Source: a virus (taxonomy: Duplodnaviria > Heunggongvirae > Uroviricota > Caudoviricetes). From it: 15,643 bases of DNA. Positions 1-15,643 of this stretch are shown here, in pieces. Both the position numbers and the translations under genes were made by a program. Location: positions 1 through 15,643 of the IMG/VR virus record IMGVR_UViG_2925919700_000004, one strand, 5' to 3'. Position 1 is the first letter of the stretch. Each line of letters opens with the position of its first letter. Below the pieces are notes generated by a model. The model was given only the letters and a program-made list of their open reading frames with translations. It was not told the DNA's origin and ran no database searches.

Positions 1-1074
1 TCATTTGTCGATTTCAATTTTGTCCCATTCCCGTCCACGGCTGTCCCTATACCGCGCCGCCATTGAATCTGATTTATGCCCGAGAAGACGTTGAGCAAAC
101 TTATCGCCAATCTGGTTCCGGTATAGCCTCGCTGACAGGCTACGCAGTTCATGGAATGTTGGCGGGTTTCCATCAAATGAGAGGCCAGATGCATTTCTCG
201 CCTTTGTAAAATACTTTGATACTGTTTTCGGGGAAAGCGGATCGTGATGCTTTGATGCGATTATAGTTTCACTGCTGCTGGCCTCCCTGCATTTCTGTAG
301 TGTATCAGCCAATGAGATATTGAGCGCGTCAATCGTTAGCGTTAGCGGAATGGCGAGTTTAGCCCCTGTTTTACTCTGTTTAATGTGAAGATGGTTGTCG
401 TTTATGTCTGACCATTTCATTCTGCACAAATCGCCGACTCTCTGCCCTGTAACGACGGCCAAATCCATCGCCAGCCTTAGCCAGATAGGGAGAGGTTCGG
501 CTGCATGGTAAATCTCGACATACTCATTAGCTGTCAGCCTTGAGCGCCTTACTTCTGACTTTGCTGTACGGGTTGCTGTTACCGGATTCGTTGCCACATG
601 CCCCTCGGCTATTGCTTCACGAAAAACGTCAACAAGGGTTGACCTGATTAATTTTGCGGAAGCTGCTTTACCTTCTGCTACGTAGGTGTTTAGCATTGCT
701 GCCACTTCTTTCGTTGATATGTCAGTGAGCGGTTTGTCCGGCAATTTTCTTCGGATTGCCCTGATTTTGCTGGCGTAGTCGAGTAGAGTTTTCGGCCTGA
801 TCCCCCTTTCGGTGAGGATTGTTTCATATCGGTCAAGCCACACATGAAGAGTGATTGCGTCACCGCCTTTAATTCTGTCTATCAGTGATTTGCGTCCGCT
901 GTCTGAGAGTAACTCAATATTGGCCTGTATTGCTTCAGTGATTGCTATCCTCCTGTCTCGGCCTAATCCAAACTCTTTACCCGTCCTTGGGTCCCTGTAG
1001 CAGTAATATCCATTGTTTCTTATATAAAGGTTAGGGGGTAAATCCCGGCGCTCATGACTTCGCCTTCTTCCCAT
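1..1074 (-). CDS. int: Phage integrase, tyrosine recombinase (lambda/HK022-type Int); complete, stop codon at positions 1-3
   Basis: 357-aa ORF. The first ~55 residues (MGRRRSHERRDLPPNLYIRNNGYYCYRDPRTGKEFGLGRDRRIAITEAIQANIEL) match the lambda Int arm-binding domain as I recall it. The C-terminal region has the tyrosine-recombinase catalytic context (PTFHELRSLSARLY ... LLGHKSDSMAARYRD). It overlaps xis by 23 nt as in lambda. Confidence 0.95.
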   Translation of the reverse strand: MGRRRSHERRDLPPNLYIRNNGYYCYRDPRTGKEFGLGRDRRIAITEAIQANIELLSDSGRKSLIDRIKGGDAITLHVWLDRYETILTERGIRPKTLLDYASKIRAIRRKLPDKPLTDISTKEVAAMLNTYVAEGKAASAKLIRSTLVDVFREAIAEGHVATNPVTATRTAKSEVRRSRLTANEYVEIYHAAEPLPIWLRLAMDLAVVTGQRVGDLCRMKWSDINDNHLHIKQSKTGAKLAIPLTLTIDALNISLADTLQKCREASSSETIIASKHHDPLSPKTVSKYFTKARNASGLSFDGNPPTFHELRSLSARLYRNQIGDKFAQRLLGHKSDSMAARYRDSRGREWDKIEIDK

Positions 1075-1270
1075 TTCTGATCCTCTTCAAAAGGCTACCT
1101 GTTACTGGTCGATTTAAGTCAACCTTTACCGCTGATTCGTGGAACAGATACTCTCTTCCATCCTTAACCGGAGGAGGGAATATCCTGCACTCGCGTACCC
1201 ATCGACGAACTGTTTCAAGGCTTCTTGGGCGTCGCTGGCGTGCGTTCCACTCCTGAAGTGTCAAGTACAT
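1052..1270 (-). CDS. xis: Excisionase Xis (lambda-type)
   Basis: 72-aa ORF MYLTLQEWNARQRRPRSLETVRRWVRECRIFPPPVKDGREYLFHESAVKVDLNRPVTG..LLKRIRNGKKAKS, essentially identical (one substitution by my recollection) to lambda Xis. Sits immediately upstream of and overlapping int. Confidence 0.92.
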   Translation of the reverse strand: MYLTLQEWNARQRRPRSLETVRRWVRECRIFPPPVKDGREYLFHESAVKVDLNRPVTGSLLKRIRNGKKAKS

Positions 1271-1565: not shown

Positions 1566-2108
1566 TTAATCGTCAATGTATTTTGAGCATTGTGGGCAAT
1601 CATCGATCCCACAATACGATTCATATGCATCCTTTATTGCGTCGCGGGCTTCAGTAAGAGTATTGAATAAGTTGCAGCTATTATCTTTTTGATATAGGTA
1701 AGTTCCTAATTTATAAGCAGAAGAAGCATCATTTCCGCTGTCTAAAATTACATCGTTATGGATTCTGCACCTTGCAAGAACTCCTGATCCCATATCGGTA
1801 ATTCTTATTCCTTCGCTACCATCCATTGGAGGCCATCCTTCCTGACCATTTCCATCATTCCAGTCGAACTCACACACAACACCATATGCATTTAAGTCGC
1901 TTGAAATTGCTATAAGCAGAGCATGTTGCGCCAGCATGATTAATACAGCATTTAATACAGAGCCGTGTTTATTGAGTCGGTATTCAGAGTCTGACCAGAA
2001 ATTATTAATCTGGTGAAGTTTTTCCTCTGTCATTACGTCATGGTCGATTTCAATTTCAATTGATGCTTTCCAGTCGTAATCAATGATGTATTTTTTGATG
2101 TTTGACAC
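1566..2108 (-). CDS. Ea8.5-like early-left protein with C-terminal Cys-x2-Cys zinc-binding motif and an N-terminal extension
   Basis: 180-aa ORF with GTG start at 2108 and a GAGGA Shine-Dalgarno about 9 nt upstream. The C-terminus (...SSAYKLGTYLYQKD...YESYCGIDDCPQCSKYIDD) resembles the C-terminus of lambda Ea8.5 as I recall it (...CPLCTKHIDD). It occupies the same position (first gene leftward of xis) with the same ~295-bp spacing as lambda ea8.5. AT-rich. Confidence 0.6.
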   Translation of the reverse strand: MSNIKKYIIDYDWKASIEIEIDHDVMTEEKLHQINNFWSDSEYRLNKHGSVLNAVLIMLAQHALLIAISSDLNAYGVVCEFDWNDGNGQEGWPPMDGSEGIRITDMGSGVLARCRIHNDVILDSGNDASSAYKLGTYLYQKDNSCNLFNTLTEARDAIKDAYESYCGIDDCPQCSKYIDD

Positions 2109-2290: not shown

Positions 2291-2491
2291 TCAGGCAGCC
2301 TTGTTATTCTGTTTACCAAGTTCTCTGGCAATCATTGCCGTAGTTCGTATTGCCCATTTATCGACATATTTCCCATCCTCCATTACAGGAAACATTTCTT
2401 CAGGCTTAACCATGCATTCCGATTGCAGCTTGCATCCATTGCATCGCTTGAATTGTCCACACCATTGATTCTTATCAATAGTCGTAGTCAT
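2291..2491 (-). CDS. Small Cys-rich hypothetical protein (possible zinc-binding, 66 aa)
   Basis: ORF MTTTIDKNQWCGQFKRCNGCKLQSECMVKPEE... with a C-x5-C-x2-C-x5-C arrangement. Lies in the leftward operon between the Ea8.5-like gene and the basic protein gene. No family assignment possible without a search. Confidence 0.5.
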   Translation of the reverse strand: MTTTIDKNQWCGQFKRCNGCKLQSECMVKPEEMFPVMEDGKYVDKWAIRTTAMIARELGKQNNKAA

Positions 2492-2561: not shown

Positions 2562-2569
2562 ATATCACC

Positions 2570-2896
2570 TCAAATAAGTGGTTTGCTGCCTAATTTCATT
2601 TTCTGGCGACCAACACAAGTCACACCCATTTCACTGCGTGGCTTGCTGTACCATGTGCGCTGATTCTTGCGCTCAATACGTTGCAGGTTGCTTTCAATCT
2701 GTTCGTGGTATTCAGACAGCACTGTAAGGTCTATCGGATTCAGTGCGCTTTCTACTCGTGATTTCGGTTTGCGATTCAGCGAGAGAATAGGGCGGTTAAC
2801 TGGTTTTGCGCTTACCCCAACCAACAGGGGATTTGCTGCTTTCCATTGAGCCTGTTTCTCTGCGCGACGTTCGCGGCGGCGTGTTTGTGCATCCAT
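2570..2896 (-). CDS. Hypothetical basic protein (108 aa, Arg/Lys-rich N-terminus)
   Basis: The track ORF 2570..2947 has an internal ATG at 2896 preceded by a strong AGGAG about 8 nt upstream (plus-strand ctcctgt at 2908-2914). N-terminus MDAQTRRRERRAEKQAQWKAANP is highly basic, which might indicate nucleic-acid binding. Confidence 0.5.
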   Translation of the reverse strand: MDAQTRRRERRAEKQAQWKAANPLLVGVSAKPVNRPILSLNRKPKSRVESALNPIDLTVLSEYHEQIESNLQRIERKNQRTWYSKPRSEMGVTCVGRQKMKLGSKPLI

Positions 2897-2983
2897 CTTT
2901 ATTCTCCTGTCAGTTAGCTTTGGTGGTGTGGTAGGTGGGAGACCCATTTCGACCTGCTTCGGCCGACTTCAATTCGGCAATAG

Positions 2984-3295
2984 TTCCGCAGGCCTCGCCG
3001 CTTTACGTGCGACATATTCCCACTCGATGCTAAATACACCGGAGAACTAGCTGATGCGAAAAAGCAGCTTGATGATCTGCAGCGTTGTGTTCGCACTGGC
3101 AAGTGTGGGCTGCACTTCAATGCCCGATGTCCAGCGAGCGGAAAGACCGGCACCGGCAGCTTGGGCGATGCTTCCAGCCCCGGACTTACTGACTCCGCTG
3201 AACGGGATTATTTCACCCTCAGAGAGCGAATCGTCACAGTGACGAAGCAGGTCGGCTACTTGCAGGACTACATCAAAGAGCAGTGTTCAAATTAG
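2984..3295 (+). pseudogene. Rz: 5'-truncated Rz (i-spanin) remnant; no start codon, N-terminal transmembrane domain missing
   Basis: Reading frame open from 2984 to stop TAG at 3293-3295 with no ATG/GTG/TTG start. Translation ...LDAKYTGELADAKKQL...DASSPGLTDSAERDYFTLREAIVTVTKQVGYLQDYIKEQCSN aligns with the C-terminal ~90 residues of lambda Rz (...LDAKYTKELADAKAEND...NAASPRLADTAERDYFTLRERLITMQKQLEGTQKYINEQCR, from memory). Confidence 0.8.
3054..3242 (+). CDS. Rz1: Rz1 (o-spanin) outer-membrane lipoprotein, embedded in the +1 frame of the Rz remnant
   Basis: 62-aa ORF MRKSSLMICSVVFALASVGCTSMPDVQRAERPAPAAWAMLPAPDLLTPLNGIISPSESESSQ, with a signal peptide ending in a lipobox-like SVGC and a proline-rich mature region. 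Strongly resembles lambda Rz1 (...VVGCTSK...PPPPPAWIMQPPPDWQTPLNGIISPSERG, from memory). Confidence 0.8.
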   Translation: MRKSSLMICSVVFALASVGCTSMPDVQRAERPAPAAWAMLPAPDLLTPLNGIISPSESESSQ

Positions 3296-3353: not shown

Positions 3354-3761
3354 ATGCAGACCGATCTGGAATACTTGAAGGGAATGTTAGGGGTCTTTAT
3401 TAAGGCTGGCGGACCATTGATATCAGCTAATGACCTTAAAAAAGCTGGATACGAAATAAGCAGCGATAAAGGACTCTTTCATTACTACCAATTGATTGAG
3501 AGAGGTTATATTAGTAACCATTTTCTAGAAATAGGCGATCCTAAGAAATTAGGACTTACTATTGGGCTTAATGAAATCCGTGAATGGCCAGCCAATGTAA
3601 GACTCACGTCATCAGGCCAAGAGTTTGCAGAAACCCTTCAACAAAAGGCTGTTTTTGAGAAGCTAAAAACAATTAGCGATCAACCATTATCGGTATTGAA
3701 AGATGTTGGTGTAGAGCTTCTAAAATCCTACGCAAAAAAGAAATTTGGTCTTTCAGATTAA
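3354..3761 (+). CDS. Hypothetical cytoplasmic protein (135 aa), cargo gene of unknown function
   Basis: ATG at 3354 with GGAGG about 8 nt upstream. AT-rich compared with the flanking Rz and terminase genes. No transmembrane segment evident and no recognisable motif. Followed by a terminator-like hairpin. Confidence 0.6.
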   Translation: MQTDLEYLKGMLGVFIKAGGPLISANDLKKAGYEISSDKGLFHYYQLIERGYISNHFLEIGDPKKLGLTIGLNEIREWPANVRLTSSGQEFAETLQQKAVFEKLKTISDQPLSVLKDVGVELLKSYAKKKFGLSD

Positions 3762-3783
3762 CTGCCTATGGGCGGTTTTTATT
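3762..3783 (+). terminator. Candidate Rho-independent terminator
   Basis: CTGCC-tatg-GGCGG stem (one G-U pair) followed by TTTTTATT, immediately after the stop codon at 3759-3761. Confidence 0.45.
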
Positions 3784-4077: not shown

Positions 4078-4350
4078 CTAATAGCCAGCCATTTGCAAAA
4101 TCACAGTTGCAGCAGCAGCGAAAGCTGCATATGAGTTATATTTAGACTGTAACCGCGCAGTTAAGAAAAATTCGTGAAGATCTACATTTTTTTTGGGATC
4201 ATCAAATGTAATTGCTACAACGGTGCTTCTACCTGTTTTGACTTTGGCTGTTGCTGATTTGATCCATAACCCAGCCGATAAAAACCCAAAGAAAATCGAT
4301 AGTGCATGATGGTCAATTAACCAGTTTTTAATTAGTAATAAATCACTCAT
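4078..4350 (-). CDS. Small hypothetical membrane protein (about 90 aa) antisense to the late operon, at the bor-equivalent position
   Basis: Track ORF 4078..4395 trimmed to the internal ATG at 4350 (MSDLLLIKNWLIDHHALSIFFGFLSAGLWI...). One clear and one weaker hydrophobic segment. AT-rich. Convergent with the 3354..3761 gene. Not similar to lambda Bor as I recall it. Confidence 0.45.
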   Translation of the reverse strand: MSDLLLIKNWLIDHHALSIFFGFLSAGLWIKSATAKVKTGRSTVVAITFDDPKKNVDLHEFFLTARLQSKYNSYAAFAAAATVILQMAGY

Positions 4351-4374: not shown

Positions 4375-4926
4375 ATGGCACTCACCGACAAACAAGAGAT
4401 GTTCTGTCGCGAGTACCTCATCGATTTAAACGCCACGCAAGCGGCTATTCGGGCGGGGTACAGCGCAAAGACAGCTAACCGTACCGCATCCGAAAACCTG
4501 TCAAAACCTGACATCAAGTTAAGAATCGCCGAACTGAAAGCACAACGCAATGATCTTGTTGGTATTAATGCAGAATATGTACTTAATCGCCTTATTGAAA
4601 TCGACCAGATGGATGTGCTCGACATTCTCCTGCAAAACGGTGAGTTAAAGCCCATTAAAGACTGGCCTAAGGTATGGCGCACAACGCTATCAGGAATGGA
4701 TGTCGTGGAGATGGCATCCGCAGATAGCGCCGCACTTCTGAAGAAAATCAAATGGCCTGATAAGGTCAAAAACCTTGAGTTGCTCGGGCGTCATGTTTCT
4801 GTTCAGGCGTTTAAAGACAATGTCAAAAATGAAGTGACTGGCGCTGATGGAGGACCAGTCAGAACAGAAATTACCAACTTAACGCCGGAGCAGGCTGCAG
4901 AAGTGTATAAAAAAATGATGGGCTAA
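4375..4926 (+). CDS. terS: Terminase small subunit (Terminase_2 / P27-like family)
   Basis: 183-aa ORF starting [34 protein letters not shown]..., a characteristic N-terminal signature of this terminase small subunit family. Directly precedes the large subunit gene. Confidence 0.9.
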
Positions 4927-4928
4927 GT

Positions 4929-6551
4929 ATGCCGTTACCATTCCCCTTCGATTTTAAACATCCTGATTACCAGATGGTTTTTGAATGGCGGATGGAACGC
5001 CTACAGCGCATTCGCCAGAACCCTGAAATATTGCCAGCACTAAAACAGTTTTACCGAACCAACCCGGCTCAGTTCATCATCGACTGGGGCATGACAACGG
5101 ACCCGCGTAATATTGATTATGGCCTGCCGGTGACCATTCCGTTTTTACTCTTCCCTAAGCAGGAGGAGTGGATCCACTGGATTATGGAACGCTGGGGTAA
5201 TCGGGAGAATGGTATTACCGAAAAATCCCGTGAAATGGGGCTCAGTTGGACCGCGATCGGACTGGCCTGCTCGCTTTGTCTCTTCAACAAAGAAATGGTT
5301 ATCGGTTTCGGCTCCCGTAAAGAGGAATACGTCGACAGCACCGGTGACCCGAAAGCATTGTTCTGGAAGGCGCGCAAGTTCGTGGAAACGCTACCTGTAG
5401 AGTTTCGCGGTTCGTGGAGCGAGAAGAAGCACGCGCCATATATGCGTGTTGAGTTTCCTGAAACTGGTGCCGTTATCAAAGGCGAGGCTGGCGATAATAT
5501 TGGTCGTGGTGACCGTACCACGCTTTATCTGGTTGATGAGGCTGCATTCCTTCAGCGTCCTCTGCTGATTGATGCTGCGTTGTCACAAACGACGCGTTGC
5601 CGTATTGACCTGAGTTCAGTTAACGGCATGGCGAACCCGTTCGCTCAGAAGCGTCATGGCGGGAAGATACCGGTATTCACATTCCACTGGCGGGATGATC
5701 CTCGCAAGGATGAAGAGTGGTATCGCAGGGAATGCGAGAAAATCGATAATCCGGTGGTGGTGGCACAGGAACTTGATCTGAACTACAGCGCATCTGCGGA
5801 AGGCGTCCTGATCCCGTCCGACTGGGTACAGGCTGCCGTCGACGCACATATCAAACTTGGTATTCAGCCAACGGGCAAGCGACTGGGCGCGATGGACGTC
5901 GCCGACGAAGGCCGGGACAAAAATGCCTTTTCGACCCGTCACGGCTTCCTTCTGGAGAACGTGCGTGAATGGTCCGGCGTTGGCAGCGACATTTACCAGT
6001 CTGTTGAGAAGGTCTTCGGCTTTTGCGAACAGGACAACCTCGAAGAGTTTCGCTTTGACGAGGACGGGCTGGGCGCTGGCGTTCGCGGCGATGCACGCGC
6101 TATCAACGAACTGCGTAACGCTGCGCGCCGACCGTCAATACTCGCAACACCGTTTCGAGGTAGTGGCGCGGTATTTGATCCGGATGATGAAGCGGTGCGC
6201 GGTGACAACGGACAGGCCGCCCGCCTGAACAAGGACTTCTTCGCTAACGCCAAAGCCCAGAGCTGGTGGCGGTTACGTAAACTTTTTCAGAATACCTGGC
6301 GCGCCGTGGTCGAAGGTATGGCTTACAACCCGGACGAAATCATCTCAATCAGCAGTAGCATGGCACTCAAAGATAAACTCATCATCGAGCTTTCGCAGCC
6401 GACCTATTCCATTAATGGTATGGGAAAAATCGTTATTGATAAACAGCCTGATGGAACCCGGTCGCCAAACCTTGCCGACTCGGTGATGATCAACTATGCC
6501 CCAATGAATTCAGCCCTGAACATCTGGGAGCTGCTAGGGAGACAGGCCTGA
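4929..6551 (+). CDS. terL: Terminase large subunit (ATPase and nuclease)
   Basis: 540-aa ORF. Has a lambda gpA-like deviant P-loop (KSREMGLS, compare lambda KSARVGYS), a Walker B-like LYLVDEAAF motif and acidic nuclease-type motifs ([11 protein letters not shown]). Start is 2 nt after the terS stop; its stop overlaps the portal start (TGATG). Confidence 0.9.
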
Positions 6552-8017
6552 TGGCACGAAACAAACAAGCCACGCGGCGAACGGCACAGGCCACCGCTGA
6601 TGGCTATGAGAACTTTGTTGCCCGCGTGGGGATGCAGACGCCTAACCAGCACTCAGCATCGACCTACCGGGCTAACTTCACCAGTCGTAACCGCATGCTG
6701 GTGGAATGGTCCTATCGTTCGTCCTGGATCATCGGCGAAGCGGTCGACGCTATCCCGGATGATATGACCCGCAAAGGCATTCGCATCACTTCGGAAATTG
6801 ATGCAAAAGATCGTGGCATTCTCGAATCACAACTGGATGAGTTGCAAATCTGGGATGCGCTGAATGACGTGCTGAAATGGTCGCGCCTCTATGGCGGCGC
6901 GGTGGGTTTCATCATGATTGAGGGGCAGGCACCAATGACCCCGCTGCGACCCGAAACCATCGGTAAGGGCAAGTTTAAGGGGATTCTCCCGCTCGACCGC
7001 TGGATGATCGACCCGGTACTGACCCGCCGCATTAAAGATATGGGGCCGGACCTGGGTAAACCTGAGTTTTACGATGTGGTGACCACAGCAACGGGAATTC
7101 CTGCCTGGCGCATTCATCACAGTCGACTGATTCGCTTTGATGGCGTCACGCTGCCATTTCAGCAGAAGATGACTGAGAACGAATGGGGAATGTCGGTTGT
7201 AGAGCGTATCTGGGATCGTCTTACCGCGTTCGACAGCGCTACTGTCGGCGCGGCGCAGCTGGTCTACAAAGCGCATCTGCGGACCTACAAGGTGGAAAAA
7301 CTTCGTGAGCTTATTGCGCTGGGCGGCCAGGCATTCGAGGCGCTGCTGAAAAACATTGATCTGATTCGACAGTTTCAGAGCAATGAAGGCATGACACTAA
7401 TGGATGCCAAAGATACCTTCGAAACCCACCAGTACAGCTTCAGTGGTCTGGATGACATTCTTTCGCAGTTCGCTGAGCAGATCAGCGGTGCCGTCGGCAT
7501 CCCGCTGGTACGCCTGTTTGGTCAATCCCCGAAAGGCTTCTCAACTGGTGACGCAGACCTCGCCAACTATTACGACCGGGTGAGTTCATTGCAGGAGCGA
7601 CGATTACGGCTGCCGATGCGCCGGATACTGGACATTATGCACCGCTCGGAACTCGGTAAGCCGCTGCCGGACGATTTCACGTTTGAGTTTAACCCGCTCT
7701 GGCAAATGTCTGATGTCGATCGTTCAACGGTGGCGTTAAATACCACCAACGCAATCAGTACAGCGCTGGGTGATGGTCTGATGACACTGAAAGCCGCTAT
7801 GACTGATTTGCGCGAAAATTCTGACGTAACCGGCATCGGGGCATCCATTACCGACGAGGACATAGAGAATGCCGAAGACGAAGCGCCGCCAGGCATCCGC
7901 GAACCTGATGACGAACCGCAGGAGCCGTCAGGCGGAAATCCGCTATCGAACCAGCCTACGCAGGATAGCGCGGGCGGTCGGAGACATCGTAAATGGTCAC
8001 TACGATGGTTCAAATGA
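6551..8017 (+). CDS. Portal protein
   Basis: 488-aa ORF immediately downstream of and translationally coupled to terL, preceded by GGGAGA. Size, position and acidic C-terminal tail are typical of portal proteins in Mu-like or SPP1-like head modules. Followed by a Mu-F-like gene. Confidence 0.8.
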   Translation: MARNKQATRRTAQATADGYENFVARVGMQTPNQHSASTYRANFTSRNRMLVEWSYRSSWIIGEAVDAIPDDMTRKGIRITSEIDAKDRGILESQLDELQIWDALNDVLKWSRLYGGAVGFIMIEGQAPMTPLRPETIGKGKFKGILPLDRWMIDPVLTRRIKDMGPDLGKPEFYDVVTTATGIPAWRIHHSRLIRFDGVTLPFQQKMTENEWGMSVVERIWDRLTAFDSATVGAAQLVYKAHLRTYKVEKLRELIALGGQAFEALLKNIDLIRQFQSNEGMTLMDAKDTFETHQYSFSGLDDILSQFAEQISGAVGIPLVRLFGQSPKGFSTGDADLANYYDRVSSLQERRLRLPMRRILDIMHRSELGKPLPDDFTFEFNPLWQMSDVDRSTVALNTTNAISTALGDGLMTLKAAMTDLRENSDVTGIGASITDEDIENAEDEAPPGIREPDDEPQEPSGGNPLSNQPTQDSAGGRRHRKWSLRWFK

Positions 8018-8492
8018 TAGCGTTACCGAAATAATGGATGCGCTGGAGCGCTACAGCGAAATCATCACCCCCTGGGCGACGAAGGTTGCTGAGAACTTTA
8101 CCGCCGACATTGCACGCCAGAATGAAAAGCAGTGGCGTCAGTACAGCCGGAACATCAGCGCAGAGCTGCGCAACATGGTCGACCGCGCCCCGGTAGGCCA
8201 GGTGATGAAATCCATCGTCGCCGAGCAAATTAAGTACATCAAGTCACTGCCTCTTGAGGCCGCCGATCGGGTGTATGACATTCAGAACAAGGCCATCGAG
8301 GCCGTTGTGTCTGGTGGCCGCGCTGAACCATTCGCGAAAGAGATAGCAGCGTCCGGTGACGTGTCACGCTCACGAGCGAACCTTATCGCCCGTACCGAGC
8401 TTGGACGTGCAACCGGCGCACTCGATCAGGCGCGTGCGCTGTCAATCGGCTCGAATGGTTATAACGTGGCGTCATTACTGGGAGGCGGCTAA
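7869..8492 (+). CDS. Head morphogenesis protein, Mu F / SPP1 gp7-like minor head protein
   Basis: 207-aa ORF containing the ...SRANLIARTELGRA... motif typical of the Phage_Mu_F domain. ATG at 7869 has GAGGA about 8 nt upstream but overlaps the portal gene by 149 nt; alternative in-frame starts are at 7908 and 8034. Confidence 0.75.
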   Translation: MPKTKRRQASANLMTNRRSRQAEIRYRTSLRRIARAVGDIVNGHYDGSNDSVTEIMDALERYSEIITPWATKVAENFTADIARQNEKQWRQYSRNISAELRNMVDRAPVGQVMKSIVAEQIKYIKSLPLEAADRVYDIQNKAIEAVVSGGRAEPFAKEIAASGDVSRSRANLIARTELGRATGALDQARALSIGSNGYNVASLLGGG

Positions 8493-8794
8493 TGACAATT
8501 CAGGAAATTCCGCTGACAGCGGACAACCAGCAGTTCAGCATCGTCCTGGGTGGTGTCACCTGGCGGATTAGCATCATATGGCGAGATCCTTACTGGATTA
8601 TGGACCTGCAGAACGACAGAGGGGAGCCGGTAATCTCCGGTATTCCTCTCGTCACTGGCGCTGATCTGCTGGCGCAGTACGCCTGTATGGGGCTTGGTTT
8701 TAAGCTGGTGGTGGTCTGCGATGACAACACACAGGATTACCCCACAAAAACTGATCTTGGCGGCCGCAGTCATTTACTGGTATCAACGGAGTAA
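8492..8794 (+). CDS. Hypothetical structural-module protein (100 aa)
   Basis: Start overlaps the previous stop (TAATG) with a GGGAGG Shine-Dalgarno, and the next gene starts 3 nt after its stop, indicating translational coupling within the late operon. Function not recognisable. Confidence 0.5.
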   Translation: MTIQEIPLTADNQQFSIVLGGVTWRISIIWRDPYWIMDLQNDRGEPVISGIPLVTGADLLAQYACMGLGFKLVVVCDDNTQDYPTKTDLGGRSHLLVSTE

Positions 8795-8796
8795 GC

Positions 8797-9861
8797 ATGT
8801 CACAGAACTGGATGAGACATTTCGAGCTGCAGCTTGTGGACGGGAACGGTCAGGGAATTGAGCTAAGTGATTTCAAAGTCACCTTTACGATCGACTGGTT
8901 CAACATCAGCAGCGCGTCCCGGGTAGGGACTATCAAAATTTATAACCTCTCGGCAGATACTGTGAACCGAATCACCGGGCAGGAATTTTCGAAAGTGCGT
9001 CTGATTGCCGGTTACGACGGTATCGCGCCGGAGGTGTCAGCAAGCGACGTAGGGACCGTGCGGGAAGTTGACGCGGCGGACGTGGGCCAGAGAGATGGCC
9101 GCAACTACGGACTGATTTTCAGCGGTGAAATTCGCTACTCGGTCACAGGAAAAGACAGTCCGGTTGATACCTACGTCCTGATTCAGGCAGCAGATACTGA
9201 TCTGGCTTTTGCCACCAGTATAACCTCACAGACGCTGGCTGCCGGTTACACGGTCGCTGATGTGAACCGTGCGCTGATGAAAGACTTCGAAGCCAAAGGC
9301 GCGACCGAAGGCCTGACGCCTGAAATGCCTGCTACTGTATTCCCCCGGGGGCGGGTACTCTTTGGCATGACGCGGCATCTTATGGATAACGTAGCTGGTC
9401 AATGTGGTGCAACATGGCAATTCGTGGACGGTCAACGCCAGATGGTGGCGAATAACGAATATGTTCATGAAGCGATTGTGCTCAACAGCGCCACCGGGCT
9501 TATCGGCATGCCGCAGCAGACTATCGGCAACGGTGTAAACGTCCGTGCGCTGATTAATCCGAACATCCGGGTTAACGGGCTTATTCAGCTGGATCAGGCT
9601 TCCGTGTACCGCACCGCGCTGTCGAACAATGATATCGCGATGGCTGGTGGTCAGATCACCGACCAGAACACGGACGGAAATATCACGCTAAGCGGCACCA
9701 CAGCACAACCTGCCAGCATCGCAACGGATGGCGTTTATATTGTGCGCGGGATTATGTACACTGGAGATACAAGGGGCCAGGCGTGGTACATGGATATGAT
9801 GTGCGAAGCGCGTGGCGCGGCGGATCTTCAAAGTCAAGGAGCAATGAATCGGTGGGGATAA
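8797..9861 (+). CDS. Putative baseplate hub protein (gpD / Mu gp44-like); assignment by position and size only
   Basis: 354-aa ORF with ACGGAG Shine-Dalgarno. It is the last core gene before the spike-wedge-J-gp48 baseplate set, which is where Mu-like and P2-like modules place the hub. No diagnostic motif recognised, so the functional call is weak. Confidence 0.4.
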   Translation: MSQNWMRHFELQLVDGNGQGIELSDFKVTFTIDWFNISSASRVGTIKIYNLSADTVNRITGQEFSKVRLIAGYDGIAPEVSASDVGTVREVDAADVGQRDGRNYGLIFSGEIRYSVTGKDSPVDTYVLIQAADTDLAFATSITSQTLAAGYTVADVNRALMKDFEAKGATEGLTPEMPATVFPRGRVLFGMTRHLMDNVAGQCGATWQFVDGQRQMVANNEYVHEAIVLNSATGLIGMPQQTIGNGVNVRALINPNIRVNGLIQLDQASVYRTALSNNDIAMAGGQITDQNTDGNITLSGTTAQPASIATDGVYIVRGIMYTGDTRGQAWYMDMMCEARGAADLQSQGAMNRWG

Positions 9862-9863
9862 GA

Positions 9864-10328
9864 TTGAATAAGAAAGCCATTTTTATTGCAATAATTTTAC
9901 TTGTTCCGATGTCGGGATTAGCCGCTCCTGGGAAGTATGAAAAAATGGCTGTTGATTTAATGGATCAGCAAAAGTTTACGCAGTGGCAACATTACGCCTC
10001 TGCTACTCCTTTTTTCGCTATGAATGGTCGCAGATTCGCCATGACCATTGATGATTTCGCGGATATAGTCAGCAACTCCTTTCAAGAATGCGAAGATCTG
10101 GATTCCTACACCAATCGGAAAGGAACTACGGATGATTGTAAGTCCTATGTTTACAAAGGCATAAAGGAGTGGGTAAACCTCTCTCAAGATAAGTCTGTTA
10201 GCGATACAGCATGGAAAATGGGCCAGCGCTATGCCTTCAACACACGTAATCCTATTGCCCATAAAAACGCATGGGATTTCAATGGGATGGCGGCCGGTAT
10301 TCGCGTTGCTAAATCTCAAGGTTATTAA
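9864..10328 (+). CDS. Hypothetical secreted protein (about 155 aa) with N-terminal signal peptide; cargo gene
   Basis: I prefer the TTG start at 9864 (MNKKAIFIAIILLVPMSGLAAPGKYEK...), which gives a classic signal peptide with a positively charged n-region, hydrophobic core and small residues before the cleavage site. The track start (GTG 9783) would overlap the upstream gene. Two cysteines in the mature part. Markedly AT-rich. Confidence 0.55.
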   Translation: MNKKAIFIAIILLVPMSGLAAPGKYEKMAVDLMDQQKFTQWQHYASATPFFAMNGRRFAMTIDDFADIVSNSFQECEDLDSYTNRKGTTDDCKSYVYKGIKEWVNLSQDKSVSDTAWKMGQRYAFNTRNPIAHKNAWDFNGMAAGIRVAKSQGY

Positions 10329-10553
10329 GTCATGGATGCGCCGAAAATCATCGGATCTTTCCCTTGTAAAAAAGTGGCTGGGCGATGATTTTTGACGTCC
10401 ATAATATTATGGATGAACTGTTGCCAATTGCGCTAATTTTAACAAAATAATACTGGTTAACGCATTTTTTGAACCATCTGTACACAGTAGTTGTCTATAC
10501 TTTACCTTAAAGGTAAACTCTGCGCTCCACTGATGTTCACTATGGGAGGGGAT

Positions 10554-10793
10554 ATGAGGAAAATCGTTAATCGTTACTTAGCCGCTGCCGGTAGTGTTAT
10601 GGACATTATGCCGACTACAGATTACTGGCAATATGCTGCTTCTGGATCTGATTGTCGGGCAATAAGAAGTGATGTTAAAGTCATTGCAAGTGACATGAAC
10701 AGAGTTATCAGGTATGAGTTCAAAACCCCGCAAGCAGGCGGCCGTTCTCAAAAAGCATCAGGAAAACAAAGCGTCGCAAAAAACCGTTCCTGA
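10554..10793 (+). CDS. Small hypothetical protein (80 aa)
   Basis: Track ORF 10491..10793 trimmed to the ATG at 10554, which has a strong GGGAGGGG Shine-Dalgarno 4-5 nt upstream. The 3' end overlaps the next ORF by 80 nt in another frame. Confidence 0.35.
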   Translation: MRKIVNRYLAAAGSVMDIMPTTDYWQYAASGSDCRAIRSDVKVIASDMNRVIRYEFKTPQAGGRSQKASGKQSVAKNRS

Positions 10794-11286
10794 TTCGGAT
10801 GGTATCGACGAAGATATTGATTCCTCGGAATATGATGAGTCTCAGGAAGTAGTGGAAAAGCTGTCTGCAGTTGCCAACCTTGATCCTGAGCTAAAATCGA
10901 AGTTAACACCTGAACTTCTTGAGAGAGTTTCTAAGAACCCGAAGGTTATTGCCATGTTTCAGCAGGAGTCTTTTCAGGGACCACTCCCACCTCCTGCTAT
11001 GCTCTTACAATATAATCAAATATTACCCGGCGGCGCTGAGAGAATTTTCAGGCTAACCGAAAAAGAGCAAGAGCATAGGCATAAGACGCAAAGTGATGCA
11101 TTACTTGGTGCGGTTTCACGCGACAAACGTGGGCAATGGATGGGATTTTGCATTGCAATGGTAGTGCTTATAATGGCTGCGTTTTTTGCTAATCGCGGTA
11201 ACACTTGGTTCGCAGGTACTCTTGCTACTTTAGATCTCGTAGGATTAACTACAGTGTTTGTTTATGGTAGGAAGAAACCTAAATAA
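10714..11286 (+). CDS. Hypothetical membrane protein with C-terminal paired transmembrane helices (possibly DUF2335-like)
   Basis: 190-aa ORF with an acidic/charged N-terminal half, a conserved-looking LPPPAMLLQYNQILPGGAERIF segment, and two C-terminal hydrophobic segments (MGFCIAMVVLIMAAFFA and FAGTLATLDLVGLTTVFVY). The family name is from memory and unverified. Confidence 0.55.
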   Translation: MSSKPRKQAAVLKKHQENKASQKTVPDSDGIDEDIDSSEYDESQEVVEKLSAVANLDPELKSKLTPELLERVSKNPKVIAMFQQESFQGPLPPPAMLLQYNQILPGGAERIFRLTEKEQEHRHKTQSDALLGAVSRDKRGQWMGFCIAMVVLIMAAFFANRGNTWFAGTLATLDLVGLTTVFVYGRKKPK

Positions 11287-11302
11287 TCCATACATCCTTT
11301 CA

Positions 11303-11325
11303 AACCCGCTTCGGCGGGTTTTTTG
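11303..11325 (+). terminator. Rho-independent terminator
   Basis: AACCCGC-ttcg-GCGGGTT stem-loop followed by TTTTTTG, 17 nt after the stop of the membrane-protein gene. Confidence 0.65.
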
Positions 11326-11343
11326 CTTTCTGGAGCCTACTAA

Positions 11344-12096
11344 ATGGCAGTATCTGACCAGACCCGCAGCGGCGACCTTGCCGAAACATTCAAATCTGAA
11401 CGGGAAACAACAAAGAACCAGATACGTGTTGCTTTGCCTGGCATCGTCCAGTCATTCGATCCTGATGCGGTGACAGCGGTTGTGCAGCCTGCGATCCGTT
11501 CGGTTGAGAAGGATAATGACGGCAACCGCATTACCCAAAATTACCCATTGCTGGTGGATGTGCCAGTGGTATTCCCGCGTGGCGGAGGATGTACGCTAAC
11601 GTTTCCGATTAAAGCCGGGGATGAGTGTTTGGTGATTTTTGCCGATCGTTGTATTGATTTCTGGTGGCAGAGCGGCGGGATACAGGAGCCGGTTGATGAC
11701 AGAATGCATGATTTATCGGATGCGTTTTGTATTGTCGGTCCCCAGTCGCAGGCAAGGAAGATTAGCGGTATTAATACCAGTGCCACACAGTTGCGTAGTG
11801 ACGACGGCAGCACCTATTTTGAGCTTAATCCTGATACCAGGAAAATTAAAATTGTCGCTCCGGGGGGGCTTGATGTGGTTGCCCCCCTGGCTGATTTTTC
11901 TGAGAAAGTAACCATTCATGGCCTGTTAACCTGGATGGGGGGCATGGTGGGGTCTGTTGTTTCTGGTGTGGCTTCAAAAATCACTGGTGCTGTTGAGTTT
12001 TTGGGTAGCGTGAAGGCTAACGGCAAGCCAATCGATGATACGCACACTCATGGTGGTGTTCAGCGCGGTGGAAGCAATACTGACGGAGTAAACTGA
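11344..12096 (+). CDS. Baseplate central spike / baseplate assembly protein V-like (Mu gp45 / P2 gpV-type)
   Basis: 250-aa ORF with GGAG Shine-Dalgarno. The Gly-rich C-terminus has a His-x-His motif (DDTHTHGGVQRGGSNTDG) of the kind found at the metal-binding apex of phage spike proteins. Immediately precedes wedge-like and J-like genes. Confidence 0.75.
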   Translation: MAVSDQTRSGDLAETFKSERETTKNQIRVALPGIVQSFDPDAVTAVVQPAIRSVEKDNDGNRITQNYPLLVDVPVVFPRGGGCTLTFPIKAGDECLVIFADRCIDFWWQSGGIQEPVDDRMHDLSDAFCIVGPQSQARKISGINTSATQLRSDDGSTYFELNPDTRKIKIVAPGGLDVVAPLADFSEKVTIHGLLTWMGGMVGSVVSGVASKITGAVEFLGSVKANGKPIDDTHTHGGVQRGGSNTDGVN

Positions 12097-12449
12097 TGCG
12101 ATACAGACGTGAAGACGCCGATGGCGATTACACCTTTGGCAGCGGTGATGACACCTGGCTGATTAACTCACCGGAGGCCGTGGCGCAGGCGGTAAAAACG
12201 CGATTCGAATTGTGGTATGGGCAATGGTTTCTCGACACCACCGAGGGGACTCCGTGGATCCAGTCCGTACTCGGTAAGCAGAAGCCGGAAACCTACAACC
12301 TGGCGATCCGTAAGCGCATCCTCGAAACGCGGGGCGTTAAATCAATCCTCTCTTTCAATACGACGGTGGATACCACGACCCGACGTGTCATGTTTTCCGC
12401 TGAAATCGACACTCTTTATGGAATAACGACTGTTACATCGGAGGCGTAA
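12096..12449 (+). CDS. Small baseplate protein (Mu gp46 / gpW-like position)
   Basis: 117-aa ORF translationally coupled on both sides (TGATG at 12094-12098, TAATG at 12447-12451), between the spike and baseplate J genes. Assignment is by size and synteny. Confidence 0.55.
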   Translation: MRYRREDADGDYTFGSGDDTWLINSPEAVAQAVKTRFELWYGQWFLDTTEGTPWIQSVLGKQKPETYNLAIRKRILETRGVKSILSFNTTVDTTTRRVMFSAEIDTLYGITTVTSEA

Positions 12450-13648
12450 TGGCTCTGAACCTTGATTCTCTCGGTTTATCTGCAAAGGTAACCGCGGAGG
12501 GGATCAGTGCGCCTGATTATCAGACGATACTCAGCACCCTGATTAGCTATTTTCAGCAGATTTATGGCAGTGATGCCTACCTCGAACCGGACAGCAAAGA
12601 CGGCCAGATGGTGGCTCTGATGGCGCTGGCGATTCATGATGCCAATAATATGGCGATAACTGTCTACAACTGTTTTTCACCGGCAACCGGCTATGGGGCT
12701 GCACTGACCAGTAACGTGAAAATAAATGGTATTTCACGTAAAGGCGCGACGAACTCTACGGTTGATTTGCTTCTTACAGGAACTGCCGGAACAACCATCA
12801 TTAATGGCAGCGTGAAAGACAGTAATAATGTGATATGGCGTTTGCCTGCTTCAGTGGTGGTCGGCGTGGATGGTACAGTGATGGCGACCGCAACATGTTC
12901 CGTCAGTGGTGCAGTGGCGGCGCTGGCTGGAACTATCACTGAAATTAATACGCCAACCCGTGGCTGGGTTTCGGTAACCAATCCTGCTGCAGCTACTGTG
13001 GGCACTCCGGCAGAAACTGACGCGGAGTTACGTATCCGCCAGTCGCAGAGTGTTGCGCTGCCATCAATAACCCCATTTGAAGCACTGGATGGTGCTGTTT
13101 CTAATGTTACCGGTGTAACCCGCCACAAACTCTATGAAAACGATACTGGTTCGGAGGACGGTAACGGGTTACCGCCACACTCTGTTGCTGTAATTGTGGA
13201 TGGCGGTGATGTGACGGATATTGCTCAGGCTATCAGAGGGAATAAAGGTCAGGGGACAGCCACTCACGGCACAACATCCGTTACGGTTCCGGATAAATAC
13301 GGCAATCCCCATGTAATCAAATTCTCGCGTTCCAGTGATGTACCTGTTTATGCCCGGATTAAATTAAAAGTTTTTACGGGTTATACCTCACAGATAGGGC
13401 AGCAGATCCAGCAGGCTATTTCCGACTATATCAATAGTCTGACGATTGGTGATTCGGTCCTTTTAAGTCGCATTTACTCACCGGCGAATCTTGGCGTGGT
13501 GAGTGGCGGGAATGCACGCTATTACGATATTCAGGAACTGACGATTGGGAAATCCCCGGGGGCTTTGTCGTCATCAAACATTGATATCAGATACAACGAA
13601 TCTGCGTCCTGTACACCGGAAAATATCGTTATAACGGTGGAGTCATGA
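12449..13648 (+). CDS. Baseplate J-like protein (Mu gp47 / P2 gpJ family)
   Basis: 399-aa ORF. Size and position (after the wedge-like gene, before the gp48-like gene) and overall sequence character fit the baseplate J family. Confidence 0.8.
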   Translation: MALNLDSLGLSAKVTAEGISAPDYQTILSTLISYFQQIYGSDAYLEPDSKDGQMVALMALAIHDANNMAITVYNCFSPATGYGAALTSNVKINGISRKGATNSTVDLLLTGTAGTTIINGSVKDSNNVIWRLPASVVVGVDGTVMATATCSVSGAVAALAGTITEINTPTRGWVSVTNPAAATVGTPAETDAELRIRQSQSVALPSITPFEALDGAVSNVTGVTRHKLYENDTGSEDGNGLPPHSVAVIVDGGDVTDIAQAIRGNKGQGTATHGTTSVTVPDKYGNPHVIKFSRSSDVPVYARIKLKVFTGYTSQIGQQIQQAISDYINSLTIGDSVLLSRIYSPANLGVVSGGNARYYDIQELTIGKSPGALSSSNIDIRYNESASCTPENIVITVES

Positions 13649-14325
13649 GCAAATACACCGAACTGATCACGAACTACCACGCCACCAAACCTAAATTTCT
13701 TGCACATGTTGATCTGATGACCCGGCCGCTTATTGATGTTGCGGCTGCCACCAGAGGGCTGATTACTGCATTTGATATTGACTCTGCGGTTGGTGTGCAA
13801 CTTGACATTCTTGGATTGTGGATCGGACGCAGCCGTGTTGTCAGCCAGCCGATCTCAGGTGTCTATTTCAGCTGGGATACCGACGGGCTTGGATATGATC
13901 AGGGTGTATGGCAGGGGCCATACGATCCTGATTCCGGATACATGTACCTCAGCGATGAAACTTATCGTGTCATCCTTAAAGCGAAGATTGCGATTAATAA
14001 CTGGGACGGACGGAATGATTCGCTTCCAGCAATTCTTGACGCTGCAACATCAGGATCCGGGCTGCGAATGCAGATAGTCGATAACCAGGACATGACGATA
14101 TCGGTCTGGGTCTTTCCTGATACTGATATTTCAGATGTATCGCGTGAGTTAATTGCGGCAATTAAACAGGGGTATCTCACAGTAAAAGCCGCCGGGGTGT
14201 GGGCGGGTGGCATTGAAACGCCTTCGGTGGAAACCCCATCTGAAGGCTCAAAATTTTTTGGTTTTGATATGGATAACGAATTCATCAGTGGTTTTGATGT
14301 AGGAGCATGGGGAGTATTACTCTGA
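13645..14325 (+). CDS. Tail protein, Mu gp48-like / e14 YmfQ-like
   Basis: 226-aa ORF whose start overlaps the J-like stop (ATGA). It occupies the gp48/gpI-equivalent position between baseplate J and the tail fibre gene. Confidence 0.65.
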   Translation: MSKYTELITNYHATKPKFLAHVDLMTRPLIDVAAATRGLITAFDIDSAVGVQLDILGLWIGRSRVVSQPISGVYFSWDTDGLGYDQGVWQGPYDPDSGYMYLSDETYRVILKAKIAINNWDGRNDSLPAILDAATSGSGLRMQIVDNQDMTISVWVFPDTDISDVSRELIAAIKQGYLTVKAAGVWAGGIETPSVETPSEGSKFFGFDMDNEFISGFDVGAWGVLL

Positions 14326-15224
14326 TGACGAAAAATGACTTTAAAGCGTTTGCAACGGATCGAAATGCCAATGTTATGTCGCAGGAGGAATGGGAAGCGT
14401 TGCCTGCGCTTTTATCCGGATTTACAGCAGGGAAAGCATCCAGTGCGCAAATCAATAAGGTTATTCGACAGGCCAGCTTTATTGCGGCAGCGCTTGCGCA
14501 GTACACAGCCAACAAAAGTGGGCTGGACGTGCTTGATGATGGTGACCTGAACGGGTTTATCTCCAAAATGGGAACCGCTTTTGGGAAGGATTTCCAGGCC
14601 CTTGATGCCACGCTGACGGCATTAGCTGGGCTGGAAACCGGTGCAAATAAACTCCCGTATTTCACTGGAAATGATACAGCTGCGCAGACTGATTTGACTT
14701 CTGTTGGCCGTGACATTATCGGGAAAAAGACTATTGCTGACATTCTCACATACCTTGGTTTGGGAGAAACAATAAATAAAGCCTCCGGAGCTATGCAGAA
14801 ATCGGCTAATGGAGCTGATATTTCTGATGTATCAGCCTTCCGAAATGCGCTCCAGTTAGGGACCGCTGCAACACGAGATGTTGGAGCAGATAATGCCTCG
14901 AAGTTACTGGATTTAGACAGCTTCAGGTCAATGATGTCAGGGAATGGCTACATCTACATTCCATGCATTGCGACGACAGGAAACCCGGTGAAACTTATGT
15001 TGCAGTGGGGAACGGTGGCAACACAAAAGGGAGCTGATGCTGGATATGCCTTACCATTTGCTTTTCCCTATGCAGGCTTATTTGCGACCGGAAACCGTGG
15101 AACATCTGGCTACAATGCCGCGATGAATGTGCGTATTGCCAGCAGAACGCATATCAGTATTCAGAACTGGTCGCCATCCGGAGAGGGCACCGAAGATTGT
15201 TGTTTTATCGCGCTGGGGTATTAA
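14325..15224 (+). CDS. Tail fibre protein
   Basis: ATG at 14325 overlaps the upstream stop (TGATG), with GGGGAG about 10 nt upstream. This is preferred over the track start at 14307, whose AGGAG is only 1 nt from the ATG. 299-aa protein followed by a tail-fibre assembly gene. The C-terminal half is visibly AT-richer than the N-terminal half. Confidence 0.7.
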   Translation: MTKNDFKAFATDRNANVMSQEEWEALPALLSGFTAGKASSAQINKVIRQASFIAAALAQYTANKSGLDVLDDGDLNGFISKMGTAFGKDFQALDATLTALAGLETGANKLPYFTGNDTAAQTDLTSVGRDIIGKKTIADILTYLGLGETINKASGAMQKSANGADISDVSAFRNALQLGTAATRDVGADNASKLLDLDSFRSMMSGNGYIYIPCIATTGNPVKLMLQWGTVATQKGADAGYALPFAFPYAGLFATGNRGTSGYNAAMNVRIASRTHISIQNWSPSGEGTEDCCFIALGY

Positions 15225-15226
15225 GA

Positions 15227-15643
15227 ATGAATAAATTTTATAAAGGCTCTTTCTATCCGAAAGCACTAAAAGAGGTATATATCAGCGCCGGTTCATGGCC
15301 TGAAAATGGCGTTGATGTTGATGATGAAACAATGGCAATTTACACAGGCGTAGCGCCACAAGGCAAAACGCTGGGGGCTGATAAAAATGGTAATCCTGCG
15401 TGGATTGATATCCCGCCACTCTCCGCTGAACAACAGATTATTCAGGCTGAACAGAAAAGAACGGTATTGCGCTCTATGGCTGATAAGGAAATAGTCTGGA
15501 GACAGGATGCTTTTGATGCGGAAATCGCGACGGCAGAAGAAACCGCCGCGTTATCTGAATGGAAAAAATACCGGGTCTTGCTGATGCGCGTTGATACATC
15601 AAATCCCGTCTGGCCTACGCCTCCGGGGGAGCAGGCCAATTGA
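15227..15643 (+). CDS. tfa: Tail fibre assembly protein (Tfa family chaperone)
   Basis: Track ORF trimmed to the ATG at 15227 (MNKFYKGSFYPK...), 2 nt after the tail fibre stop. The C-terminal motif ...EWKKYRVLLMRVDTSNPVWPTPP matches the conserved Tfa C-terminus. Stop at 15641-15643. Confidence 0.8.
   Translation: MNKFYKGSFYPKALKEVYISAGSWPENGVDVDDETMAIYTGVAPQGKTLGADKNGNPAWIDIPPLSAEQQIIQAEQKRTVLRSMADKEIVWRQDAFDAEIATAEETAALSEWKKYRVLLMRVDTSNPVWPTPPGEQAN

Follow-up and report, generated by a model that had tools for sequence, protein, structure and literature searches.

The locus described here raises the question of why a phage late operon should hold packaging, baseplate and tail fibre genes while the genes for the capsid and for most of the tail are missing. 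The window, i.e. the whole stretch of DNA that was analysed (15,643 nt), had been read in a first-pass annotation in two ways: either as a streamlined, e14-like element kept by selection, serving as a domesticated module or relying on a helper phage, or as the outcome of a deletion. We consider it very probable that the locus is the product of ordinary decay of an E. coli prophage by two deletions, and not a purpose-built module.

Gene content of the late operon

The late genes all lie on the plus strand. The packaging end consists of the small terminase gene terS (4375..4926; Pfam Terminase_2, E=7e-40), the large terminase gene terL (4929..6551; PHROG 2, E=3.6e-32), a portal gene of the DUF1073/Phage_portal_3 type (6551..8017; Pfam Phage_portal_3, E=7e-108) and a Mu-F-like ORF (7908..8492; PHROG 324 head morphogenesis, E=1.5e-51). 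Between this ORF and the spike gene there are four ORFs, not only two as originally counted: a 100-aa baseplate plug (8492..8794; Pfam Pam3_gp18, E=4.8e-25), a 354-aa baseplate hub (8797..9861; PHROG 196, E=4.5e-89; PDB 7yfz, Pam3 hub gp19, E=2.4e-12), a conserved 154-aa ORF of the baseplate cluster that has no family match (9864..10328), and a moron encoding a DUF2335 membrane protein, recognized by profile matches (10714..11286). The moron occupies a variable, low-GC slot between hub and spike which holds other genes in the relatives L002 and L008, and is followed on its 3' side by a terminator-like hairpin (11302-11321). The baseplate cluster continues with the membrane-puncturing spike (11344..12096; Pfam PF18352 spike N-terminal domain, E=1.4e-44, plus an Apex motif), a gp25-like sheath initiator or wedge subunit (12096..12449; PHROG 120, PF10934), Baseplate_J (12449..13648; Pfam) and a DUF2612 baseplate wedge 1 protein (13645..14325; Pfam), and it ends with a tail fibre gene with a Gp53-like C-terminus (14325..15224; Pfam and the annotation of the source contig) and the tail fibre assembly gene tfa (15227..15643).

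The proteins of 100 and 354 aa had been singled out for a profile search, since a major capsid protein at 8797..9861 would have changed the picture; the search, together with the PDB sequence match, identifies them as plug and hub, and neither is a capsid protein. The absence of capsid, scaffold, connector, sheath, tube and tape measure genes from an operon with packaging and baseplate/fibre genes is thus borne out by profiles and by tblastn in all frames: 16 proteins that the intact relative L008 has and the element lacks gave no match in any frame of the window at E<=1e-3. Among these 16 are DUF2213, cement, the DUF2184 major capsid, connectors, the DUF3383 sheath, the DUF3277 tube, chaperones and the tape measure. 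An R-type tailocin, or another domesticated contractile tail, was also considered and rejected, as sheath, tube and tape measure are absent and the lysis genes are reduced to a 3' fragment of Rz and to Rz1.

Ends of the element and attachment site

The window covers practically all of a defective prophage of ~16 kb that lies between torS and torT in an E. coli clone. It corresponds to positions 5073-20715 of the source contig (L003), in which the order is torS-attL-int ... tfa-attR-torT, and it begins at the int stop codon and stops at the Tfa stop codon. In the source contig the attL core is CTTAAGGTGAATAAG and the attR core is CTTTAGGTGAAAAAG; compared with the empty torS-torT site of K-12, the core matches. 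The inspection of the right flank that had been proposed did find attR: the Tfa stop codon is followed by a P arm of the lambda/HK022 type, the attR core and then torT. Structural genes to the right of the window, the other finding that could have overturned the picture, are accordingly not there, since attL and attR bound the element at the HK022 attachment site. A third deletion joining tfa to attR was considered and rejected, because tfa-attR-torT is also the right-hand end of an intact relative integrated at this site.

The left end carries a 357-aa tyrosine integrase of the HK022 type (1..1074, minus strand; Pfam Phage_integrase and Arm-DNA-bind_1) and a 72-aa excisionase (1052..1270, minus strand; precomputed Pfam PF07825 Exc on the identical contig L003). 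The 3' end of int together with the P' arm is 98.8% identical to HK022. With an HK022-like Int, and with its att core between torS and torT, the element has an HK022-type integration module, and it shares with HK022 the torS-torT insertion, the same core sequence and a distance of ~72 bp from the int stop codon to the junction. There the likeness ends: HK022 is a siphovirus whose 40.7 kb hold a full set of genes, whereas the element has 16 kb, carries myovirus-type baseplate genes and should be incapable of making virions.

The right deletion

The closest intact relatives of the late operon are phage vB_EcoM-606R2 (ON470579; L002) and a prophage of E. coli TUM12357 (NZ_CP134370; L008). Gene order, gene spacings and overlaps are the same in these relatives as in the element, and nucleotide identity is 93-99% over terS-terL-portal and over plug-hub-spike-gp25-J-wedge; they differ in carrying ~9.75 kb between the minor head and plug genes, and in having lysis and regulatory genes. 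Both are intact and have a Brunovirus/SEN34-like virion module; the TUM12357 prophage is located at the lambda att site. The retained genes of the element are full length with 98-100% amino-acid identity to L008 (99.4% for terL, and 98.7% for the 154-aa ORF, which lies at the same position in both), the exception being the truncated minor head gene. The order DUF1073 portal, Mu-F-like protein, Pam3-type plug and hub, spike, gp25-like protein, J and DUF2612 wedge is that of the Brunovirus/SEN34-like module; its DUF2184 capsid, DUF3383 sheath, DUF3277 tube and SLT-domain tape measure belong to the deleted segment.

Alignment against both relatives places the right deletion scar at 8462..8463, at a TA microhomology of 2 bp. 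Compared with vB_EcoM-606R2, ~9,755 bp are absent (L002 5248-15002). The comparison of the region between the F-like and hub genes, which had been suggested as a check, thus reveals 13 genes plus most of a 14th in the intact relatives; what is missing starts at codon 185 in the minor head gene and stops 9 codons short of the end of the gene preceding the plug. A deletion had been suspected early on with its scar at 8492-8797; the deletion is real, and its scar lies 29 bp further left, inside the 3' end of the Mu-F-like ORF.

The "Mu-F-like" ORF of 194 or 207 aa (starts at 7908 and 7869) is a fusion pseudogene. In it, residues 1-185 of the 244-aa minor head protein run on in frame into NVASLLGGG, the C-terminal 9 residues of a 195-aa baseplate protein; the Pfam Mu_F match spans just profile positions 2-50 of 112, and the native TAATG overlap with the plug gene is kept at the end of the ORF. 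Exact-protein look-ups from both starts gave no match; the NCBI gene calls have no protein here, while Logan calls a 152-aa version from 8034. The minor head fragment is a divergent allele, with 82% nucleotide identity to the intact relatives and 86% amino-acid identity to L008. Decay of the fragment after the deletion was rejected as the cause in favour of a mosaic allele (dS ~0.85, dN/dS 0.09).

We also considered whether the missing genes reflect an assembly artefact, or are located elsewhere beside the element. The window does end exactly at gene boundaries, which hides the flanks from anyone who sees the window alone; in the source contig the left flank is torS, and attR and torT follow on the right. 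The right junction is the same in at least five independently assembled NCBI/Logan contigs, one of them 263 kb long, and a microhomology of just 2 bp means that the junction is not a collapsed repeat. The chance of either is practically nil.

The left deletion

The early region contains an accessory gene related to DUF2528/lambda Ea8.5 (1566..2108, minus strand; Pfam), a 66-aa ral-like gene (2291..2491, minus strand; PF11058 Ral on L003) and the gene for the 108-aa antiterminator N (2570..2896, minus strand; Pfam N36). The N region is 98% identical to phages vB_EcoP-683R2 and CL707 up to window position 3022, and the N leader is reduced to ~125 nt that include neither nutL nor pL. At this point lies the left deletion scar (3021..3022), with a 2-bp CA microhomology that joins the N leader to codon ~64 of Rz; it was mapped by a three-way alignment with sequences of both parental types (L012 and L001) and by mapping of Rz. 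Beyond the scar, the last ~90 of the 153 codons of Rz remain (3021..3295, plus strand; identical over 300 of 300 nt to the 3' region of Rz in L001), with the ORF of Rz1 embedded intact in the fragment (3054-3242, plus strand; PF06085 Rz1).

What was lost at the left scar are nutL, pL, the repressor, the replication genes, Q/pR', the holin and the endolysin, and the ORF inventory of the window contains no gene for repressor, replication, Q, holin or endolysin. With pL, nutL, the repressor, Q/pR' and most lysis genes gone, the late genes are left without a known promoter; in the sequence upstream of terS and in the moron slot, scans picked up no more promoter-like or terminator-like sites than in shuffled sequence. 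Between Rz and terS lie two ORFs of PHROG families that have no assigned function: ORF135 of 135 aa (3354..3761, plus strand; PHROG 585), with a terminator-like hairpin at its 3' side (3760-3777), and a 90-aa ORF (4078..4350, minus strand; PHROG 14357, also in the L003 annotation). PADLOC found no defence-system match among eight accessory ORFs.

Probable decay of a hybrid prophage

Bounded by attL and attR, collinear with intact relatives on either side of both mappable breakpoints (L002 and L008 on the right, L012 and L001 on the left) and stripped of essentials for lytic growth, the element has the hallmarks of a defective prophage. Its progenitor was probably a hybrid temperate phage which combined a lambdoid early region (HK022-type int/xis, N and lambda-type lysis genes) with a Brunovirus/SEN34-like contractile-tail module resembling the virion module of vB_EcoM-606R2. 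Two illegitimate deletions at 2-bp microhomologies, most likely in the prophage state, gave the present gene set. One extends from a point 125 nt upstream of N into mid-Rz; the other, of ~9.75 kb, took DUF2213 (scaffold/protease-like), cement, the DUF2184 capsid, connectors, sheath, tube, chaperones and tape measure as well as most of a baseplate protein. From this gene set we infer an element that should be incapable of induction, replication, packaging and assembly, whose remaining late genes are presumably unexpressed passengers, intact only because the deletions are recent.

A related defective prophage in E. coli 300709 (NZ_CP025903, L001) is 94.7% identical in the terS-to-minor-head region, and suffered an independent, different deletion: it kept DUF2213, cement, capsid and connector genes and lost sheath through wedge. 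That head genes were kept and tail genes lost in one relative points to haphazard decay.

Alternative readings: selection, satellites and use in trans

It might be argued that the packaging and baseplate/fibre genes form a domesticated module under selection, for instance with an e14-like benefit to the host exerted through structural genes. None of the 11 retained late genes is shortened, dN/dS against the intact relatives is low (0.01-0.2), and the fusion is in frame. This low dN/dS, however, is measured as divergence from intact phages and reflects a history as a working phage, so that it is uninformative on selection after the deletion. The recovered copies, from one E. coli clone and from independent NCBI and Logan assemblies, are all 100% identical; nothing has accumulated since the deletion, and without variation among the copies selection cannot be inferred. 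The right junction occurs in none of 5,426 complete E. coli genomes, a 25-mer across it has no match in GTDB species representatives, and an 18-mer gave five genome and three metagenome matches, all due to chance and without further similarity to the window. With the scar limited to one clone, a quite different deletion in the relative, the late promoter and activator gone, and no known functional particle to be made from terminase and portal without capsid or from a baseplate without tube, sheath and tape measure, we regard domestication as very unlikely.

The tight translational coupling of the remaining genes, which had also been pointed out, is real in that there are TAATG, TGATG and ATGA overlaps, but it is nothing special: the spacings equal those of intact L008 wherever both have the junction, and the overlaps were thus inherited. 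That all late ORFs are intact, and that the right deletion is in frame with the TAATG coupling kept, would also be expected if downstream expression mattered. These observations weigh little against decay, as the frame is kept with a chance of 1 in 3 and intactness is expected after a recent event.

A helper-dependent satellite, which would bring its own packaging and host-recognition parts and rely on a related helper phage for capsid and tail tube/sheath, could draw on the retained int, xis, both att sites, terS/terL/portal and fibre/Tfa. Satellites of the PICI, cf-PICI and P4-like kinds have a replication initiator or primase and a helper-responsive regulator; neither was found with Pfam, PHROGs and PADLOC in the main ORFs, i.e. 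all but a few short or nested ones, and the ORF inventory likewise has no replication module, repressor, helper-sensing regulator or capsid-remodelling gene. The loss of pL, nutL and cII leaves int/xis without a known inducible promoter. Two deletions from a standard phage account for the architecture base for base, as opposed to a conserved satellite layout, and no diverged family of such elements was found in complete E. coli genomes, GTDB representatives or metagenome contigs. We hold a satellite to be extremely improbable. It is likewise highly improbable that the terS-terL-portal and baseplate-fibre-Tfa blocks act in trans during infection by, or induction of, a related Brunovirus-like phage, the remnant being kept as a host-range or defence resource. 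Such blocks might contribute other fibres or baseplate parts, through recombination or phenotypic mixing, or might interfere with the packaging of the invading phage; this analysis found nothing in support of their use in trans. Neither selection nor helper reliance, as first proposed, is thus supported, given the second deletion, the identical copies and the impossibility of a head or tail.

Comparison with e14

e14, a cryptic lambdoid prophage of E. coli K-12, is an old, widespread element with known host-active genes. Like e14 and the other cryptic lambdoid prophages of K-12, the element is a remnant of ~15-16 kb with int/xis at one end and fibre/Tfa at the other, from which most morphogenetic and regulatory genes are gone. 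It differs from e14 in attachment site and phage lineage, is known from one clone only, and its retained genes look pristine. Decay of the prophage by two microhomology-mediated deletions makes it a clean case of its kind, with both scars mapped to the base. An annotation should list it neither as a tailocin nor as a satellite or intact prophage; beyond annotation this matters little.

Possible persistence through the attachment site or accessory genes

The remnant might instead persist through parts other than its late genes, either the P'-arm promoter by int or the morons (DUF2335, ORF135, ral and the ea8.5-like gene), to which the terminator-like hairpins belong. In HK022 lysogens the P'-arm promoter drives torS, and aerobic torCAD expression is shut off (PMC6814406). 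The near identity of the attL P' arm and int end to HK022 fits this idea, as do the prophages that ~5% of E. coli have at the HK022 site (Carey et al. 2019, PMC6814406) and the same torS-int junction as in the element in 189 of 5,426 complete E. coli genomes. It would account for the attL end, however, and says nothing specific on the late genes, while neutral persistence of a recently crippled prophage suffices; we thus consider such a role unlikely. Since the remnant keeps the HK022-type attL end that rewires torS/torCAD in HK022 lysogens, crippled prophages at this site may still change host respiration.

Gene content of the window

The ORF inventory and family scans divide the window into two blocks, with early genes running leftward and late genes running rightward. 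The early block, on the minus strand, comprises an HK022/lambda-type integrase (1-1074), an excisionase (1052-1270), an Ea8.5-related gene (1566-2108), ral (2291-2491) and antiterminator N (2570-2896). The plus strand then carries a 3' fragment of Rz (3021-3295), enclosing an intact 62-aa Rz1 ORF (3054-3242). Between Rz and terS lie two small conserved phage ORFs of unassigned function, 3354-3761 (plus strand, PHROG 585), followed by a terminator-like hairpin (3760-3777), and 4078-4350 (minus strand, PHROG 14357); PADLOC gave no match for either.

The late genes, all on the plus strand, are terS (from 4375), terL (from 4929), portal (from 6551), a Mu-F-like ORF (ending at 8492), a baseplate plug (8492-8794), a baseplate hub (8797-9861), a conserved 154-aa ORF, a DUF2335 membrane-protein moron (10714-11286; PHROG 3996, moron category), spike (from 11344), a gp25-like sheath initiator (from 12096), baseplate J (from 12449), a DUF2612 wedge (from 13645), fibre (from 14325) and Tfa (15227-15643). 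The inventory and scans thus bear out the first-pass annotation that this operon has no capsid, tube, sheath or tape-measure gene. That annotation had proposed a profile or structure search of the two ORFs at 8492-8794 and 8797-9861, and had left room for a capsid identity of the second. Neither is a capsid gene; they match the Pam3 gp18 plug family (E=4.8e-25), and PHROG 196 "baseplate hub" (E=4.5e-89) together with the solved Pam3 hub gp19 (E=2.4e-12), respectively.

The slot between hub and spike (9828-11312) is variable and low in GC (0.43-0.46), and is occupied by other genes in two intact relatives, phage vB_EcoM-606R2 (ON470579) and the prophage of E. coli TUM12357 (NZ_CP134370). A terminator-like hairpin (11302-11321) accompanies the moron in this slot, and a short ORF matching PHROG 26284 (10491-10793) overlaps the DUF2335 start. 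Similarity of the fibre gene to 606R2 ends at ~14558, the fibre C-terminus and Tfa (14558-15643) being a different cassette; the invertase and inverted alternative fibre segment present in 606R2 are absent near the window's fibre and Tfa genes.

A deletion removed the capsid, sheath, tube and tape-measure genes

In BLAST searches of phage and E. coli collections the matches split abruptly at ~8462-8472, where those to the left stop and those to the right begin. In both intact relatives the window's retained genes occur in the same order, with further genes between minor head and plug: DUF2213, a Gp24-like cement protein, a DUF2184 major capsid protein, five connector/neck genes, DUF3383 sheath, DUF3277 tube, two chaperone genes, a tape measure with an SLT domain and a baseplate protein of 195 aa. 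Window positions 8463 and 8464 correspond to 606R2 positions 5247 and 15003, so ~9,755 bp are absent from the window; the parental sequences have only TA in common at the junction. The fusion ORF joins minor head residues 1-185 (of 244 aa) in frame to NVASLLGGG, the final nine residues of the baseplate protein, and terminates where that gene natively overlaps the plug gene (TAATG); the C-terminal 59 residues of the minor head protein (IWRTAEDGDVRHSHREMEG...CRCY...) are missing. An in-frame fusion arises by chance in one case in three.

With tblastn, 16 proteins found only in the TUM12357 prophage (14 from the deleted segment and its two alternative morons) gave zero matches in the window. The ten shared proteins did align, nine of them at full length with 98-100% identity; for the truncated minor head protein the alignment spans residues 1-185 at 86%. 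Judged by this mapping, the deletion proposed in the first-pass annotation is correct, though its scar lies at 8462/8463, 29 bp left of where it had been placed.

The minor head fragment (7908-8462) has 82% nucleotide identity to relatives, while its neighbours have 93-99%. With dS ~0.85 and dN/dS 0.09 it is a divergent allele and not a decaying gene, and it marks the edge of a mosaic allele close to the 3' end of portal.

A second scar and loss of the control region

Over 2560-3022 the window aligns at 98% identity with the N gene and leader of phages vB_EcoP-683R2 and CL707, and from 3021 on it matches the 3' 275 nt of an Rz gene without a difference. A three-way alignment shows the N leader joined to mid-Rz at a CA microhomology (3021-3022), with the nutL boxB/boxA sequences of the intact leader immediately past the breakpoint. 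By comparison with related sequences, the prophages of E. coli 300709 and TUM12357 among them, this deletion took out nutL, pL, the cI/cro/cII region, the replication genes, Q with pR', holin, endolysin and the first ~63 codons of Rz, and so leaves N and the late genes without a known promoter; shuffled sequence showed promoter-like sites at least as often as the region upstream of terS.

Boundaries and attachment site

An exact look-up of the terL protein found 20 contigs. Positions 5073-20715 of one, a 263-kb contig of GCA_013370385.1, are the window at 100% identity, and the four others that were compared are 100% identical to it across their entire shared length. In the 263-kb contig the element sits between torS and torT, and alignment with the empty K-12 site gives an att core of ~15 bp (attL CTTAAGGTGAATAAG, attR CTTTAGGTGAAAAAG); the attL core differs from that of attR/attB at 2 of 15 positions. 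The P' arm adjoining int is 98.8% identical to HK022 and lies with the attL core at contig positions 4988-5072, directly left of window position 1, while a P arm of lambda/HK022 type separates the Tfa stop from attR. The element is thus ~16 kb long, and only its att arms fall outside the window. The structural genes that might have lain to the right are not there: Tfa is followed by the P arm, attR and torT. A third deletion at this end was considered and rejected, since E. coli Z1323CEC0009 has at this site an intact, more distant relative with the same tfa-attR-torT ending, which makes the right end native. The torS flank matches E. coli at 99.6% identity, and the same torS-int junction occurs with other prophage bodies in 189 of 5,426 complete genomes.

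Carey et al. reported prophages at the HK022 site in ~5% of E. coli, and that HK022 integration sets a phage promoter upstream of torS; in lysogens the promoter of a 73-bp arm drives torS and shuts off aerobic torCAD expression (PMC6814406). This HK022-type arm is conserved in the element, just outside the window, and the remnant probably still exerts the same effect on torS and torCAD. The arm is the best candidate for any host effect of the remnant, and is unrelated to the late genes.

Age, selection and origin of the element

The element derives from a hybrid of an HK022-type integration and early region with a Brunovirus (SEN34)-like virion module, and in size and layout it is a defective prophage like e14. 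Its 8462/8463 junction was found in none of 5,426 complete E. coli genomes, nor in any GTDB species representative or metagenome contig, the few 18-mer matches being due to chance. As all recovered copies are also identical, the scar identifies a single clone and is probably of recent date. This identity also means zero post-deletion variation from which selection could be gauged.

The retained genes have dN/dS of 0.01-0.2 against intact relatives, and their coupling spacings equal those of the TUM12357 prophage wherever a junction occurs in both, so that the couplings are inherited; the low dN/dS reflects divergence between working phages. The suggestions that the late genes are a domesticated module kept by selection, or that the element depends on a helper, are unsupported. 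The gene set has terminase and portal but no capsid, and baseplate but no tube, sheath or tape measure, and contractile-tail assembly is not known to yield any particle from such parts. Among the main ORFs, family scans and PADLOC turned up neither a replication gene nor a repressor or satellite-type gene. All this points to an ordinary, recently crippled prophage.

A defective relative in E. coli 300709 (NZ_CP025903) has a different deletion, keeping the capsid genes and losing sheath through wedge, which is consistent with haphazard decay. In the region 21099-24650 of that sequence, this independent deletion runs from a connector gene to the wedge C-terminus; after it come pieces of LexA-like repressor, integrase and Tfa genes and an acyltransferase. 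The 300709 prophage is thus a further member of this phage group that has decayed.
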